From sequence record OP745617: DNA of 64,000 nucleotides; one strand, written 5' to 3'. Below are positions 3,554 through 10,960 of this stretch, in pieces. The notes beneath the pieces are model-generated. The model saw only the letters and a list, made by a program, of their open reading frames with translations. It was not told the DNA's origin and searched no databases. This DNA is from Escherichia phage F13. The number at the start of each line of letters is the position of its first letter. The first letter of the stretch is position 1. The translations under genes were made by a program, and so were the position numbers.

Positions 3554-3717
3554 GGCCCGTTTGTTATTCATCAAGCCGCATGTGCCATATAAGATTAGTA
3601 AGCGCACCTGGCTTAACATTTACAACCGCAGCGGCGACCGTTGTCTGTACAAGGCGAAGCGACGCAAGAAGGTATATTCTTACACAACATCTATCAAATA
3701 AATAGGAGAAGACAACA

Positions 3718-5528: not shown

Positions 5529-6061
5529 TGGGTAACGATGCAGGATGGGGCAAGCCGCGATACTCAAAACTTGCCCACTACTTTGACGACGGCGAGCAAA
5601 TCAGCTTGTGCGGTAAATTCAACAAAGGCAATACAGAGTTGACCGATGCTCAAGAAATGGAATCAAGTCTGACAATTGGTGATTGCTCTAAGTGCAGAAA
5701 GGCATTATATGAGTTATTGACTCTAAGGGGATTGAAAGCGGCAAAATCAAGGGATGAATGGGTCATCAACGTCTGTGAAGGGAATCCAGAATTGATGGAT
5801 GAATTGCTGAAAACAGATGCCGTTAATGCCATTTTCAAAAGGCATTATAAAACTTGTATGCGTTACAAGATGAATGATGATATTATTTTTATGGTATTAT
5901 CTTATTCAAGGAGCACAATGGACGTCAAAAAGCTTCGACAATATCGCCACAAGGTCATGTGTGAATTGCGCCGTTTAGGAGTTATTGTGGATAATAATGT
6001 CATTAAAACGGAGTTAAAGAAGCGTGATAAAAGGAATGGTGACTGGAAGGTCAGCGGATAA
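5525..6061 (+). CDS. hypothetical protein (178 aa) with possible Cys cluster
   Basis: ATGA overlap; SLCGKF...DCSKCRK spacing suggests metal binding. Confidence 0.5.
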   Translation: MMGNDAGWGKPRYSKLAHYFDDGEQISLCGKFNKGNTELTDAQEMESSLTIGDCSKCRKALYELLTLRGLKAAKSRDEWVINVCEGNPELMDELLKTDAVNAIFKRHYKTCMRYKMNDDIIFMVLSYSRSTMDVKKLRQYRHKVMCELRRLGVIVDNNVIKTELKKRDKRNGDWKVSG

Positions 6062-6319
6062 ATAAACACTGTTTACGTGTTTTGAAGAATGGAATGTGTG
6101 CAATGGGTCGCTTTATGCGGCCTTTTGTCGTTTGGGTCATGTTTTGCTATGGAATAATTATGAGGTTGTGTTTTATTTATTAATTGTGCGGAAATATTTA
6201 GAAATATATATAAACAGGATTGTTAATATTTTAATAGTTTATGGCTATTGGTCCGTGGTGTTTGTTAGATTCTATCTATGGATTGGATTTTCTTGGGTCG
6301 TGAAACGTGGTTTTGAACA

Positions 6320-6690
6320 CATTTGATACGCCTAAAATACGGTTAAAAATTAAGCGTATCATGGCTGCAGGCCGCGCCGTTCCTGGATTCCTCTTTTCCA
6401 AATTGGTACACCCTTACGTCATGATACGTCATGGTTTTTTATCCGTATCAGTGTACAACCCTTGCCGCGCCTGGCTTGTACATTAATCTTACGGATGATA
6501 CGGATAAAACTGAGCATCGTTATATATAGAATTCGAAAAATTAATTAACTCCATTTTAAAAACATTTATATTAATTTTTTTCATATCCTCATACTTATGT
6601 TAATTTATATATTTAACGTATCATCCGTAAGATATAAGTAAAAACAAAGACTTGCGGCAATACGGATGATACGTCATGATACGCTTCAAC
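6320..6690. repeat. iteron-like module: direct and inverted ATCCGTATC / GATACGGAT 9-mers flanking an AT-rich core (copy 1)
   Basis: Repeats read directly (tatccgtatca, ttacggatgatacggat, cgtatcatccgtaag, tacggatgatacgtcatgatacg); AT-rich core 6530-6615; homologous module at 22845-23135. Confidence 0.7.
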
Positions 6691-6874
6691 CAGCCAGCAG
6701 CGGCTAAGTCGTTGATTTGCATAACAAGCGGCAAAAGGGATGGATTTCTTTTATACGTATCAAACAGTACACCACGCACCACGGTCCGTTATCCATTCAG
6801 CAATATGATTTGTGTACGTTTATAGCCATAATGAACATCAATCTGCACTTGAATATAATGTCCATCCATTGTAT

Positions 6875-8095
6875 AATTCACACTATTAATTTGCACTATG
6901 GGATTTTGCACTATGAGTCAAGATTATGTAGCGATGCCTGAAGACTTTGAAGACCCGCGATTCGCAGAGCACAATCAGGCTTTATTCGATGAGTTCATTG
7001 ACCTTGTTATTCAGGGTCATGACATGCGCGCAGCTTTTGCACTAGTATTTGGAATGGAAGTTGCAACGGATAACTACACTGGCCAGCGAATCCTTTGCAC
7101 GCAACGCAATCCATACTACAAGATGCGCTTCAAAAAGCGTATGGAAGAGATGCCACTCAAGGATTTGTGGAGCGTAAAAGGTGCAATTCACAATTTGGTT
7201 AAGCTTGTTCGTGATCCAGAAGTCGCGGCGTCAGCCAAGCTTAATGCTATTCGTGAACTGAATATCATCTACGGCATCACGATGATTGATGAAAACGGCA
7301 ATAGTAAAATGGGCCGTTCCATGGACGATTTCTACAAGGATTTTGGAGAGGCGGCCAAAGAAGGTGAGCAATTCTCCCGCCACTAGCCAATTTGCACTAT
7401 AAAACGGCCCTAGAACACATTTTCTCCAATTCTAGGGCCATCGGTAATACGACGGGGAAGGTTACAAACATAAACGCGTTAGAAAGTGTATTATTATAAG
7501 TCATCTTTTAGTCACCTTACGTAACAATTTACGACCTTCAACCGTCCAATCGAACGACTCCACCAGCAGATTCGCACTATAACCTAAGACGATGCGTCCC
7601 TTCTCGTTATCGACCCGCCAACAAGTCTCGAATAGCATTCGATTTGCACTATTAACTATTGCCGCAACTCGCGTAGGATAAGCGCAATTTGAACTATGGT
7701 CGTAAAGGGATAAGGTGCGACCACTTCCGATGGACAACGTAGCGATGAGAATGAGCGTATTCATAAGCCACCAATTTGCACTATGAAAAGCGACCCCGAA
7801 GGGCCGCCATTCGATTAGATAATCTGGAAGGTATAGGATTTGTTGCCGAACTCAAAGTTCAAGCGCCCAGCTTCCTTAAGCTTCATGCGGAAGCGAATGT
7901 GCTTGCTATCCGGCAAGCCCAGCACGGCGAACGCTACGCGGACCGATTTGAACTCGCCTACACCCTCGACCATAACGCCGTTACGGGTGAGACGCTTTTG
8001 CGCCACTTCCTTATTATCCCAACTTTTTGCAATACCTTCGCTATTCGAACGGCGATGGGAAGGAGTTCCATTTTGCACTACGCAATTTGCACTAT
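6875..8095 (+). repeat. array of about 10 copies of the 12-bp motif (A/G)ATTTGCACTAT, all on the plus strand
   Basis: Copies at 6875, 6888, 6903, 7389, 7569, 7641, 7686, 7773, 8071, 8083 (some with one mismatch). Confidence 0.7.
6898..7386 (+). CDS. hypothetical protein (157-162 aa); speculative small terminase or DNA-binding protein
   Basis: ORF starting inside the first motif copies (alternative ATG at 6913); the terminase idea is only from size and the adjacent repeat array. Confidence 0.4.
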   Translation: MGFCTMSQDYVAMPEDFEDPRFAEHNQALFDEFIDLVIQGHDMRAAFALVFGMEVATDNYTGQRILCTQRNPYYKMRFKKRMEEMPLKDLWSVKGAIHNLVKLVRDPEVAASAKLNAIRELNIIYGITMIDENGNSKMGRSMDDFYKDFGEAAKEGEQFSRH

Positions 8096-8441
8096 CGTTT
8101 AGACCGCTCTTAACGAAGGCTTCATACTCTTCGTCGGTCATCGCGTCGAGTTCTTCCTGGGTCGGCTCGGCCTTTTTAACGACCGCACGCGCCTTATGCG
8201 TTTTTACATCGCTGGACACTTCCTCGCGCGACTTCGCTTCGGGGATGGGCGATTCGTTGGACGGCTCATCGAGCGCGTTTAAGGACTCGATTAACGCGAT
8301 TACGCGAGTCTCGGCGGTACGGCGGTCCGCAAATTTCTTAATCGGCTTCGAACCGGAATTTGCATTATAAAATGCAACGAGGTCGGCGGTCTTAGTTGCG
8401 ATAACGTCGCCGCTAGTCGAGAAACGATTTAAGCTAACCAT
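7815..8441 (-). CDS. hypothetical protein (208 aa)
   Basis: Protein-like composition (acidic stretch EEELDAMTDEEYEAF); the antisense plus-strand ORF looks like a shadow. Confidence 0.45.
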   Translation of the reverse strand: MVSLNRFSTSGDVIATKTADLVAFYNANSGSKPIKKFADRRTAETRVIALIESLNALDEPSNESPIPEAKSREEVSSDVKTHKARAVVKKAEPTQEELDAMTDEEYEAFVKSGLNDSANCVVQNGTPSHRRSNSEGIAKSWDNKEVAQKRLTRNGVMVEGVGEFKSVRVAFAVLGLPDSKHIRFRMKLKEAGRLNFEFGNKSYTFQII

Positions 8442-8521
8442 AATGAACTCCTATTTGTTAGGGCGCTAGGCGCGAAAGAATTTTATTAAAGCGCCGCGCA
8501 CGACGCTCTAAAAATCCTCTC

Positions 8522-8806
8522 TTACGCTTCGACGAGGGAGAAGGTCTCAAATTCTTCTTCGCCCATAACGAGTAAGATGTTACCGATTTCGACCGCTTCG
8601 AAGAAGTATCCGTTAACGTTTACTTCGAAGGCTTCGCGGTCCGATTCCGGTAACGCCGCGTAAAGTTTAAAAGCCTCGGCGACCGTTACCCCACCCGCCT
8701 CGATGGTCTGGTCTACGTTCGCGGCGTAGACTTCGGATAAAATTTGTTTTACGCCGTAGTTCTCGACGATAGCGTTACGGATGGAAGAAACGTTAAGAAT
8801 AGCCAT
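8522..8806 (-). CDS. small protein (94 aa), paralog family member
   Basis: Aligns with the 9744..10034 product (SxIR, VY..NVD..IE, NG[YF].[FY]..EIG); own promoter upstream. Confidence 0.5.
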   Translation of the reverse strand: MAILNVSSIRNAIVENYGVKQILSEVYAANVDQTIEAGGVTVAEAFKLYAALPESDREAFEVNVNGYFFEAVEIGNILLVMGEEEFETFSLVEA

Positions 8807-8874
8807 TTTAAACTCCTAGTTGGGAGAGGCGTTAACGACCTATTCGCTAACTCATCCCGTCCCGATATGAGTAC

Positions 8875-8902
8875 ATTATAATATAGTGTAGAAAAAAGTA
8901 AA
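8875..8902 (-). promoter_or_regulatory. sigma70-like promoter on minus strand (-35 TTTACT, 16-bp spacer, -10 TATAAT)
   Basis: Reverse complement of 8875-8902; inverted copy of the promoter module at 9345-9373. Confidence 0.5.
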
Positions 8903-8946
8903 GCACTTTTTCGATAAAAATGCGATAAATTATTTTATCTTTTTTC

Positions 8947-8974
8947 TTTACTTCTTCGTACACTCGCGTATACT
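8947..8974 (+). promoter_or_regulatory. sigma70-like promoter (-35 TTTACT, 16-bp spacer, -10 TATACT)
   Basis: Diverges from the minus-strand promoter; drives the gene at 9031. Confidence 0.45.
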
Positions 8975-9030
8975 TGTTTATATCGAGACGGGCGATGGCC
9001 CTTCCTTCTACTAGCATCGGGAGCTTTATT

Positions 9031-9333
9031 ATGACTACTTTAATCTCTTCCATCCTTACTTACGACGAAGACCGTTTAACCGTTCGCTCTCTTATCGCCG
9101 CCGTTAACGCCGAACTAGAATCTAGCGCCATTAAGGTCCGCGCGGTTGCCTTCGTCGGTCTTTCCTTCGACGATATCAAGTACGCCGAACGTAGCGCCAT
9201 CCGCTTCGCGAAGACCGACGACGAAGCCGTTACCCTTATCGAGACGGTTACTCCGCGCGGCGAAACGTTAATTATCGTCGAGTATATCGACGTAGAAGGC
9301 GATAAGGCTTATAAATATTTTATCGCAAAATAA
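9031..9333 (+). CDS. small protein (100 aa), probable distant member of the same paralog family
   Basis: ATG with GGGAG RBS; 3' 200 bp of this gene is duplicated in the tandem repeat. Confidence 0.5.
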   Translation: MTTLISSILTYDEDRLTVRSLIAAVNAELESSAIKVRAVAFVGLSFDDIKYAERSAIRFAKTDDEAVTLIETVTPRGETLIIVEYIDVEGDKAYKYFIAK

Positions 9334-9744
9334 CGAAAAAGTGCTTTACTTCTTAGTACACTAAGACTATAATGTTTTATATCGAGAGGGGATGAGGTAG
9401 CGAATAGGTCGCTACCCTCCCGACTAACTAGGAGAATATTACGCGCGGTTGCCTTCGTCGGTCTTTCCTTCGACGATATCAAGTACGCCGAACGTAGCGC
9501 CATCCGCTTCGCGAAGACCGACGACGAAGCCGTTACCCTTATCGAGACGGTTACTCCGCGCGGCGAAACGTTAATTATCGTCGAGTATATCGACGTAGAA
9601 GGCGATAAGGCTTATAAATATTTTATCGCAAAATAACGAAAAAGTGCTTTACTTCTTAGTACACTAAGACTATAATGTTTTATATCGAGAGGGGATGAGG
9701 TAGCGAATAGGTCGCTACCCTCCCGACTAACTAGGAGAATATTA
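9139..9744. repeat. tandem direct duplication, 2 x 303 bp (9139-9441 and 9442-9744)
   Basis: Near-identical units read directly; each carries the gene 3' end, promoter (TTTACT-17-TATAAT at 9345-9373 and 9648-9676), leader hairpin and RBS. Confidence 0.85.
9442..9639 (+). pseudogene. promoter-less 3' fragment of gene 9031..9333 created by the tandem duplication
   Basis: Copy of the C-terminal coding part; at the junction the RBS is followed by ACG rather than ATG. Confidence 0.5.
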
Positions 9745-10034
9745 TGATCACTTTATCCGCTATCCGTGCCGCTCGCGTCGAAACTTCCGAAAACTCTAAC
9801 GTATTTGGCGAAACCTTAGAGAGCGTTTATCTCTCTAACGTTGACGCGATTATCGAGTCTATTTATGAGCCGATCAACTTCCTCGACCTTTACAAGTATC
9901 GCGATGAGGACATCGTGTCCTACCGCGTAACGATTAACGGCTTCGTTTATACGATTACCGAAATCGGCGGCGAATATCTCGCTGTACCGCAACTCGGCGG
10001 CGAAGTAACTTACTTTAAAATCGTAAGCCTTTAA
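9744..10034 (+). CDS. small protein (96 aa), paralog of 8522..8806
   Basis: AGGAG RBS; clear alignment to the 8522..8806 product. Confidence 0.55.
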   Translation: MITLSAIRAARVETSENSNVFGETLESVYLSNVDAIIESIYEPINFLDLYKYRDEDIVSYRVTINGFVYTITEIGGEYLAVPQLGGEVTYFKIVSL

Positions 10035-10045
10035 GGAGAAGAAAA

Positions 10046-10255
10046 ATGATTAATATGAATAACTCTCTTAACGCGCGCGCCCATCGCACCGCCGTCATCG
10101 ATATGTTCCGTGAGCTTAAGGACTTATGCGATAATATGAACGCGATGTTATCCATCGGCGGCTGGGGATACGAAGAAGAAGTTAAATATGCGGTTATGCG
10201 TCGCCGTCGCGATAACGTCCTTGGGCAAATTAAACGCGCCGGATTATTCCTTTAA
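10046..10255 (+). CDS. hypothetical small basic protein (69 aa)
   Basis: ORF with AAGGAG RBS; RRRRD motif. Confidence 0.4.
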   Translation: MINMNNSLNARAHRTAVIDMFRELKDLCDNMNAMLSIGGWGYEEEVKYAVMRRRRDNVLGQIKRAGLFL

Positions 10256-10281
10256 TTATAATCAACCACCGTTACTAATAG

Positions 10282-10306
10282 GCCGCGCTTAGTCGCGGCT
10301 TTTCTT
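10282..10306 (+). terminator. Rho-independent terminator
   Basis: GCCGCG-cttagt-CGCGGC stem-loop followed by TTTTCTT. Confidence 0.6.
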
Positions 10307-10419
10307 CGTCCCTATCTCGGTGCGCTCCTACGCGAAAACTCCTTTATCCTTCCCTTCGTCGTCGCATAATCTTCGTCGATATGCGCCTTAGTTCGCATAA
10401 CAGGTATTACGTTAAATGG

Positions 10420-10960
10420 AGAACATCGCGTAAGTCCTTGTTTTATATAGACACCTATATCGGACCGTTAGGGCGGGTCGCGTAAGTCGTTGTTTTATAA
10501 AGGCGCAAAACTTTCCCTTCGTTCCGAACTAAAACGAGGAATATGCCGACCCTTCGTCCGAAAATAGTACGCATGCGAAATTACATGCATCTAGAATAAT
10601 CCCCACAGATATTATCCTACACGCAATCATTCGCTTTCGAATCATTATGCTTCATATTATTATGCGTCGAATCATTCGCTTTCGAATTGTAACGCTGGAA
10701 ACTGTAACGGCGATTGATTATTGCGTTCGTGTGGTTTTTATGGCATGGGTCTTTTGGTGCGTTTTGCTACTTGATGGAATTTGCGGTACACTAATCAAAA
10801 TACGACACATTTAGTCTACTAACTTTTCAAAGAAAAAGTCCTGGACAGTACCGTACTATTTTGTACCCACAGGAAATTTGCAGTACACTCCTGCGCGCGG
10901 CAGGCAAAATAAAGGGCCGCACCAAGCGACCCACGATTCACGATTCACGGTTAAAGCAAC
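10420..10960. repeat. noncoding region with several short direct repeats
   Basis: cgcgtaagtc(c/g)ttgttttata x2 (10425-10500), aatcattcgctttcgaat x2 (10628-10700), ggaa(a)tttgc(g/a)gtacact x2 (10774, 10872), cacgattcacgattcacgg (10934). Confidence 0.6.

Follow-up and report, generated by a model that had tools for sequence, protein, structure and literature searches.

Terminases commonly recognize phage DNA at pac or cos sites that lie in or beside the gene for the small terminase subunit (terS): lambda has cosB by Nu1, P22 and Sf6 have pac inside terS, and SPP1 has pacL and pacR. For phages with a long direct terminal repeat (DTR), it is poorly understood how the DNA is recognized, how the two cut sites are chosen, and how the repeat is duplicated. 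Here we describe an array of about a dozen copies of a 12-mer, AATTTGCACTAT, in and around terS of Escherichia phage F13. (We analyzed a stretch of 64,000 nucleotides from record OP745617, which we call the window; positions refer to it.) Every copy is on the same strand, and the array lies just inside one end of the genome. This group of phages was known before, as were its terminal repeat and its TerS. The array is not previously described in the searchable literature: we found no published description of it or of the 12-mer, and the word itself turned up only in primers and unrelated sequences.

With at most one mismatch, AATTTGCACTAT has eight matches in the window (at 6888, 6903, 7389, 7641, 7686, 7773, 8084, and 8357), and 8 of 8 are on the plus strand. 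The expected number is 0.61. (In 100 dinucleotide-preserving shuffles, the maximum was 3, and none reached 8.) Allowing a second mismatch adds three copies (6875, 7569, and 8070), for a total of 11, and a weak 12th copy (CTTTTGCACTAG, with the core TTTGCACTA) lies at 7034, within terS. The original prediction, which was made from the sequence alone, had described about ten plus-strand copies from 6875 to 8095 at a density far above chance. The number, the strand, and the density are all as described, and so is the start of the array, but its last copy ends slightly further on, at 8368, for an extent of ~1.5 kb (6875-8368). Similarly, both of the adjacent pairs of copies that it pointed out are real (6888/6903 and a second pair), but the second pair is at 8070/8084, not 8071/8083. 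The original prediction had not noticed the motif elsewhere, and it is not found elsewhere in the window: the rest of the 64 kb has no comparable match, only five scattered hits with two mismatches, on both strands, as expected by chance. There is no similar density across the genome. Outside of the terminal repeat, the core GCACTA occurs six times on the plus strand and four times on the minus strand, which is what a Markov model predicts, so the motif is neither a genome-wide element nor specifically avoided elsewhere. (Relative to base composition, GCACTA does seem depleted outside the array, but this avoidance vanishes under the Markov expectation.) The spacing of the copies is irregular, from 12 to ~500 bp, and we found no helical phasing at periods of 10, 10.5, or 11 bp.

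We located the genome ends from public records and assembly breakpoints. The window is ~100% identical to Escherichia phage vB_EcoM_SP13, a Wifcevirus, and about 27 other records of Wifcevirus match it at 93-98% identity. These phages are myoviruses that are distantly related to the Pseudomonas PB1-like phages (PMC11990801). The DTR of Wifcevirus is reported to be ~3.7 kb (PMC6563267), and the DTR of Mansfield is a PhageTerm prediction (PMC6753283). The window is a permuted or repeat-collapsed assembly in which the DTR is present once:

6554 to 10754, no strand: direct terminal repeat, single copy in the window (from the starts of records, the ends of SP13, Mansfield, and an IMG/VR contig)

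The records for SP13, WFC, WFH, Ro157lw, and Mansfield open at window positions 6554-6564, and an independent IMG/VR contig (L209) begins at 6553. SP13 has the terS region at both of its ends. With the left end at ~6553/6554, the first copy of the motif is ~320 bp inside the genome terminus and the array spans 0.3-1.8 kb inside it. The right boundary of the repeat, from the right end of SP13 and from Mansfield position 3673, falls at ~10754 because the window has an extra 303-bp tandem copy. (There is a perfect 300-nt tandem duplication, with a period of 303, at 9139-9741. It doubles a predicted early promoter and a small open reading frame (ORF); SP13 and Mansfield appear to carry one copy of this unit.) We also counted neighborhoods of k-mers over the 2.5 kb at the start of the terminal repeat. 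The best 9-10-mers had 11-13 sites, compared to 3-6 in shuffles, and no reverse-complement sites in that region.

The ORF at 6898..7386, which had been noted as lying within the array, does lie there, though its start is more likely at 6913. The original prediction suggested that its product might be a small terminase, and the homology of the product to the TerS of Pbunavirus E217 bears this out: a phmmer search against PDB matched residues 3-147 to 7UXE, "Small terminase" (10 chains), with E=7.2e-34. (We take 7UXE to be the small terminase of E217, a decamer; PMC9611059.) In the annotation of Mansfield, the gene is a terminase small subunit, and the annotators reported HHpred similarity to the SF6/SPP1-type protein. 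Judging by homology, the ORF at 6913..7386 is a bona fide small terminase. The copies of the motif are placed relative to terS and its neighbors as follows:

6849 to 6877, plus strand: predicted sigma-70 promoter of terS (TTGAAT, a 17-nt spacer, and TATAAT; 10/12 matches; identified by consensus match only)
6875 to 6886, plus strand: motif copy 1, AATTCACACTAT; 2 mismatches; unvarying in 7 Wifcevirus genomes
6888 to 6899, plus strand: motif copy 2, exact (AATTTGCACTAT), in the terS leader
6903 to 6914, plus strand: motif copy 3, ATTTTGCACTAT; its final two bases are the first two of the terS ATG (6913)
6913 to 7386, plus strand: terS, small terminase subunit, 157 amino acids (phmmer against PDB, Mansfield annotation, and phrog_4783)
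7034 to 7045, plus strand: weak in-gene copy, CTTTTGCACTAG, with the core TTTGCACTA; encodes F-A-L of TerS
7389 to 7400, plus strand: exact copy, 3 bp past the terS stop and just ahead of a hairpin at 7406-7439
7569 to 7580, plus strand: copy GATTCGCACTAT, within the minus-strand gene for an 87-amino-acid protein; 2 mismatches
7641 to 7652, plus strand: copy GATTTGCACTAT, within the minus-strand 87-amino-acid gene, at codons N-S-A-N
7686 to 7697, plus strand: copy AATTTGAACTAT, within the minus-strand 87-amino-acid gene; at most 1 mismatch
7773 to 7784, plus strand: exact copy, intergenic, between the start of the 87-amino-acid gene and a hairpin at 7790-7807
8070 to 8081, plus strand: copy ATTTTGCACTAC, within the minus-strand gene for a 208-amino-acid protein; 2 mismatches
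8084 to 8095, plus strand: exact copy, within the minus-strand 208-amino-acid gene
8357 to 8368, plus strand: copy AATTTGCATTAT, within the minus-strand 208-amino-acid gene, at codons Y-N-A-N of a conserved protein motif; the weakest member

The first three bases of copy 1 are the last three of the predicted -10 hexamer, and the hairpin at 7406-7439 is annotated as a terminator in WFC. To the right of terS, three copies are in the minus-strand 87-amino-acid gene, three are in the minus-strand 208-amino-acid gene, and one is intergenic. The presence of copies in plus-strand coding, minus-strand coding, and intergenic DNA points to selection on the DNA itself. We rejected two other explanations. 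First, the copies are sense in terS but antisense to the minus-strand genes, so there is no consistent RNA element, and Rfam finds nothing in 6000-10800. Second, an artefact of protein repeats would not span three different genes on both strands as well as intergenic DNA.

Homologs of TerS took us to five more lineages: L024, which is a Logan contig of 72.5 kb, three short Logan contigs (L149, L025, and L026), and Pantoea phage Kyle. (By their length and start points, the three short contigs look like separately assembled terminal repeats.) The TerS proteins are 69% (L024), 54% (L149), 51% (L025), 47% (L026), and 43% (Kyle) identical to that of the window. For most pairs of lineages, only 130-630 of 2000 bp can be aligned, at 70-82% identity. 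Around the start of terS (from about -120 to +1200 bp), every lineage has 7-14 GCACTA cores. Across the six lineages, 60 cores are on the strand of terS and none are on the opposite strand, and they lie in genes of both orientations. (As the lineages are related, the 60 sites are not all independent events.) The array copies of the six lineages give an asymmetric logo with 12 informative positions, R-A-T-Y-Y-G-C-A-C-T-A-Y, and no information in the flanks beyond these 12 bp; the consensus across lineages is RATYYGCACTAY.

Some positions are shared as well. A copy at the 3' end or stop codon of terS is found in all six lineages (at +441 to +481), and a copy near +870 (+865 to +903) is found in five. 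Upstream of terS, the window, L024, and L149 share TATAAT-CT-GCACTAT, which is 29-30 bp upstream in L024 and L149, and the overlap of GCACTATG with the start of terS is also seen in L024. The weak copy at 7034 matches the position of a copy in L024 (+126); it may have been retained through constraint on the protein. In Kyle, the array occupies 477-1478 of the 3603-bp repeat, and it does not occur in the other parts of the 57 kb that we examined. Within Wifcevirus, two copies that are off-consensus in the window are exact in sister genomes: the copy at 7569 is GATTTGCACTAT in three other genomes, and the copy at 7686 matches the consensus in 5 of 7. ECML-117 has a divergent segment over 8070-8368. 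Purifying selection was not detectable within Wifcevirus: 21 of 132 motif columns were variable, compared to 248 of 1868 columns elsewhere, which is not a significant difference (p=0.43).

The C-terminal tail of TerS varies in length and sequence, yet it ends with (K/R/Q)-His-stop in the window (7381-7386), L024, L025, L026, L149, Kyle, and Serratia phage MyoSmar. In the lineages with the motif, this ending is encoded by GCAC-TAA or CCAC-TAG, which is the motif core. MyoSmar has K-H-stop without the DNA word, so the terminal histidine may also matter for the protein.

More distant relatives lack the word. We did not find GCACTA in this context in Pbunavirus PS44, Serratia phage MyoSmar, Xanthomonas phage XcP1, or Burkholderia phage Maja. 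Three of these have other repeats beside terS, on the same strand: PS44 has four copies of TAACACTCA upstream (L007 304-430), Maja has six copies of GATAGTTAAC (L010 4530-4785 and 5736), and MyoSmar has three copies of a 20-mer, AAAAATAAGCATGCTTTGTA (L008 5526-5640). This pattern is expected of co-evolving terminase sites. Among the matches listed for about 200 unrelated viral loci with two adjacent TTGCACTA words, the array occurs only in this phage family, which points to a phage-encoded reader. The matches listed in pattern scans of viral collections were mostly Ala-Leu coding repeats, and a scan of genome collections for arrays returned one contaminant fragment.

These facts require a function that acts at the level of DNA, depends on orientation, and is linked to both terS and the left end of the genome. 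Tentatively, we favor a packaging recognition signal for TerS or the terminase; we infer both the reader (TerS) and the output (packaging) from sequence comparisons. This seems the most likely function because the array is linked to terS like pac and cos sites are, abuts the mapped cut, and is unique in the genome, and because it stays with terS as the neighbors change while relatives have other repeats beside terS. Specifically, the array lies in and next to terS in the window and in the five other lineages, and in Wifcevirus it remains with terS and the terminus even though the primase-helicase gene is ~9 kb away. A pac site recognized by a small terminase was among the candidates in the original prediction. 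That proposal is strengthened by the identity of the ORF, by the distance of ~320 bp from the terminus, and by retention in six lineages; the dispersal over 1.5 kb is atypical of pac.

If the array is a packaging signal, then rings of TerS (decamers in the solved homolog) or the terminase holoenzyme would load on the ~12 polar sites. Loading might mark the DNA as the phage's own, set the polarity of packaging relative to the cut at ~6554, or prime the cut at the other boundary of the repeat as the motor passes. Binding to the tandem copies at 6875-6914, which cover the promoter, leader, and start codon, might also throttle the expression of terS. Such autoregulation by the three promoter-proximal copies would fit the reported dosage sensitivity of TerS in E217, where over-expression lowers infectivity (PMC9611059).

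Several observations weigh against a packaging signal. First, known pac and cosB sites are compact (~300 bp or less), and a terminase site would be expected to cover up to a few hundred bp, but this array is irregular and unphased over ~1.5 kb. Second, the TerS of E217 failed to bind DNA to an appreciable extent in vitro (PMC9611059). Third, TerS diverges to as little as 43% identity while the 6-bp core does not vary, which makes it impossible to demonstrate co-variation among the lineages that have the motif. Fourth, such an array is missing from MyoSmar, whose DTR is laid out in the same way and which has a homolog of TerS. Fifth, by analogy, the terminal Chi cluster of the lambda-like phage LLS marks the end that is not occupied by terminase (PMC12315714). 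Sixth, Kyle has a near-consensus terS promoter that is free of overlap with the motif, so autoregulation is not universal. And seventh, another set of repeats lies directly beside the terminus:

6415 to 6683, no strand: terminus-flanking repeats in both orientations (ACGTATCATCCGTA / TACGGATGATACGT, TACGTCATGATACG twice, and TTTTATCCGTATCA / TGATACGGATAAAA)

The left end (~6554) is within the AT-rich center of these repeats, and CGGAT / ATCCG-type repeats also border the terminus in L025, L026, and Kyle. The ATCCGTA / TACGGAT-type repeats may be the true cut-site signal instead. (At the left end itself, the window and L024 have AATTAACTCCATTTT in common.)

A serious rival, albeit an unlikely one, is that the 12-mer is a polar signal, akin to Chi, that is read at less than full efficiency per copy by a translocase coming from the left genome end. 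The reader might be host RecBCD that a phage factor has reprogrammed, a helicase-nuclease of the phage, or the terminase as it translocates (similar to cosQ), and the output would be protection of the end and/or channeling of the terminal repeat into recombination-dependent formation of concatemers. We consider this because the dispersed, unphased, polar, and coding-indifferent layout of the array resembles that of Chi arrays, and because true Chi sites share the region. The window has just one in the array:

7560 to 7567, plus strand: CCACCAGC, which is the E. coli Chi octamer in reverse complement; abuts the motif copy at 7569; the sole such site in the window's array

The relatives have more: nine in Kyle (L005 255-1972), six in L025 (323-1824), five in L149 (411-1836), four in MyoSmar (L008 5653-5993, just after terS), and two in L026 (792 and 1272). 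L024 has none in the region. About 0.03 would be expected per 2 kb. These CCACCAGC arrays are in the left half of the terminal repeat, on one strand, and interspersed with copies of the 12-mer; GCTGGTGG does not occur on the array strand in that region of Kyle, L025, L149, MyoSmar, L026, or the window. RecBCD that enters at the left genome end meets CCACCAGC in its active orientation. With Chi sites in this half of the repeat, there would be homologous repeat sequence to their right, available for RecA-mediated invasion of the other copy. Neither the terminal-repeat context nor the co-located Chi arrays of the relatives had been foreseen in the original prediction. In Pbunavirus, there are no clusters of the Pseudomonas Chi (GCTGGCGC) near terS.

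The 12-mer and the Chi arrays of the relatives are thus alike: each is on one strand (60 of 60 cores for the asymmetric 12-mer), takes no account of the direction of genes, and is scattered at irregular intervals over ~0.25-2 kb within the left half of the terminal repeat. The Chi copies of Kyle, L025, L149, MyoSmar, and L026 sit in the region, and with the polarity, that the array has in the window. Kyle confines both arrays to the same region (both are absent from the remaining at least 46 kb examined), and the window's one Chi touches a copy of the motif. There is also precedent, as terminal Chi clusters promote recombination-dependent growth in the lambdoid phage LLS and in P1 (PMC12315714). 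But the 12-mer is not the host's Chi: by inspection, its reverse complement (ATAGTGCAAATT) matches GCTGGTGG at 4 of 8 positions at best. No Chi-specificity factor or phage helicase-nuclease is identified in the annotation of the Wifcevirus Bas100. Kyle is rich in both elements, so they are not simple substitutes, and a Chi-like signal leaves the placement at the promoter, start codon, and stop codon of terS unexplained. A narrower version, which we think is improbable, is that the 12-mer is a phage-private analog of Chi, read by retargeted RecBCD or an unrecognized phage enzyme, that spares the repeat for recombination-dependent replication. At this place and with this polarity, some sister lineages would then rely on the host's Chi, some on the private word, and some on both.

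Another doubtful possibility is that the array is a set of operators for TerS (acting only as a repressor) or for the 208-amino-acid protein, controlling terS and the leftward early genes of the repeat. The genes to the right of terS bear on this:

7501 to 7764, minus strand: 87-amino-acid protein whose N-terminus is hydrophobic and resembles a signal peptide; two Cys and an N-S-A motif are invariant
7815 to 8441, minus strand: 208-amino-acid conserved protein (phrog_4730) with homologs as far as Pbunavirus

Copies 1-3 do stretch from the -10 box across the expected start of transcription and the leader to the start codon, with the same layout in L024 and L149, and the dosage of TerS matters in E217 (PMC9611059). 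The gene for the 208-amino-acid protein is always adjacent, and its C-terminal region weakly resembles a NUMOD-like helix-turn-helix, which would make it an alternative candidate for the reader of the motif. (The Pfam match is weak, with E=0.039, and was seen in only one member of the family. A profile search of PDB with this protein found nothing, and a single-sequence AlphaFold2 model had a pLDDT of 41, which is unusable.) The 87-amino-acid protein is unlikely to bind DNA; it is found in all six motif-bearing lineages (the alignment covers the other lineages; in L149, it was called as a gene), and Pbunavirus PS44 has no gene of this type between terS and the next gene. A third minus-strand gene to the right of terS encodes a 94-amino-acid protein. 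An operator was among the earlier candidates, and it fits the first three copies, which overlap the predicted promoter. It does not fit the others: 9 of 12 copies are away from any predicted promoter, in gene bodies or beside terminator-like hairpins. Operators also do not need to be co-oriented in 60 of 60 cases, least of all with genes on both strands. Kyle's terS promoter lacks a copy, and Pbunavirus has both TerS and the 208-amino-acid protein but no array.

The array is quite unlikely to be a replication origin, either as iterons or as sites where a primase-helicase loads or primes near the genome end. An origin element was also among the earlier candidates. The copies are direct repeats in one orientation, they are unique in the genome, and the terminus, ~250 bp from them, has an AT-rich stretch. 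Short octamer iterons are bound by primase-helicases of the P4 type, and in MyoSmar, Maja, and XcP1, the gene for a primase-helicase is 0.7-3.5 kb upstream of terS. The neighboring Chi arrays also suggest that replication could begin there from recombination intermediates. However, these three relatives lack the word. In Wifcevirus, the primase-helicase gene is distant (in Bas100, the primase genes are ~9 kb from terS), while the array stays with terS. And instead of a compact, phased, non-coding origin, we see unphased copies, 12-500 bp apart, in coding DNA.

A series of phage-specific promoters, or of activator sites like MotA boxes, for rightward transcription is very improbable. The uniform orientation would suit it, some copies are followed by TATAAA-like sequence, and by our own comparison, the core TTTGCACTA loosely resembles the T4 MotA box (tttGCTTtA). 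But there is no -10 or -35 partner at any fixed distance, so we also rejected the idea that the motif is itself a sigma-70 -35 or -10 element. Downstream of eight or nine copies, the plus strand has no gene, seven copies would yield only antisense RNA with no downstream ORF, and one copy is immediately ahead of a terminator-like hairpin. Promoter-like hits coincide with copies only at terS. The annotation of Bas100, a carefully annotated relative, lists neither an RNA polymerase or sigma factor of the phage nor MotA/AsiA. Early promoters of a clear sigma-70 type are present in the repeat, and the sequence that they share is a different one. Finally, the suggestion of a centromere-like element is disfavored, as we found no ParA/ParB or ParM/ParR genes in the annotation or in Pfam and PHROG scans of the neighboring ORFs. 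We also compared the motif to the DnaA box, the Tus-Ter core, the marbox, the NtrC half-site, and the sigma-54 -12 element, and in each case essential positions fail or a partner is missing.

The early promoters form a near-consensus sigma-70 family, at 8875-8974, 9345-9373, and 9648-9676, that shares CTTTACTTCTT(C/A)GTACACT...TATAAT. One faces leftward and three face rightward, diverging from the middle of the repeat, and they are embedded in long inverted repeats (8804-8868 versus 9379-9434 and 9682-9746). Judging by their sequence, they are likely to be early promoters for the host's RNA polymerase. At the right boundary of the DTR, there are a direct repeat of 43 bp and, in tandem, three promoter-like sites that face leftward (10609-10696 and 10611-10746, minus strand); L026 carries a related repeat, CTTTCGAATCATTAG, three times. 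Across the whole window, GATC is scarce (97 observed versus ~247 expected from composition), and several palindromic hexamers, among them AGATCT, CCTAGG, and AGCGCT, are absent. This suggests avoidance of restriction or Dam sites. Wifcevirus proteins are also found in public E. coli sequencing runs (Logan/ENA), on hundreds of ~68-kb contigs and many 2-4-kb contigs, and some are labelled as proteins of E. coli or Salmonella. These phages are thus common contaminants or passengers of isolate sequencing.

The PB1/Wifcevirus group includes widely used therapeutic phages of Pseudomonas. A structure of TerS has been solved, and the array is a concrete candidate for its DNA target. The left half of the repeat is also a natural system in which packaging and host recombination signals would be combined at one genome end. 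In the less probable case that a translocase reads the word instead of TerS, it would be a new kind of signal.

How does the array compare to known systems? Like iterons or ParR-type centromeres (R1 parC has 10 direct 11-bp repeats), it has about ten repeats of 11-12 bp in one orientation over a promoter, with the gene for a candidate binder adjacent. Unlike those, which are contiguous, helically phased, and accompanied by Rep or ParM/ParR genes, it has none of these features. T7 reportedly has runs of short direct repeats, SRL and SRR, beside its terminal repeat (Dunn and Studier are said to have described these in 1983). These too are short same-strand repeats at a DTR boundary whose function is unsettled, but they are tandem heptamers of unrelated sequence outside of a 160-bp repeat, whereas the array is dispersed and inside the repeat. 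The terminal Chi clusters of LLS, of other lambdoid phages without a Rec module, and of P1 are similar in that a short asymmetric word lies near one end, mostly in one orientation and independent of genes; the 12-mer differs from the host's Chi, and an enzyme that reads it is only conjectured.

The pac sites of SPP1 (pacL, pacC, and pacR, with G1P) and of P22 and Sf6 resemble the array in that the recognition sequence is in or around the small terminase gene, and SPP1 also has several short repeated boxes on both sides of the gene's start. These phages package by headful and their signals are ~300 bp or less, whereas here there are fixed ends, a long DTR, and an array 320 bp from the cut. In lambda, cosB has three 16-bp R sites within ~120 bp, along with an IHF site, and the ends are cohesive, while this phage has a ~4-kb DTR and about twelve 12-mers over 1.5 kb, running through and past terS into genes on the opposite strand. 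Nevertheless, cosB also consists of repeated short sites for a terminase subunit (the R sites for gpNu1), between the cut and the small terminase gene and on the gene's side. And cosB and cosQ are polar signals that define the direction of packaging, with cosQ read by the translocating terminase, much as we would expect of the array if it is, as its position suggests, a candidate terminase site.

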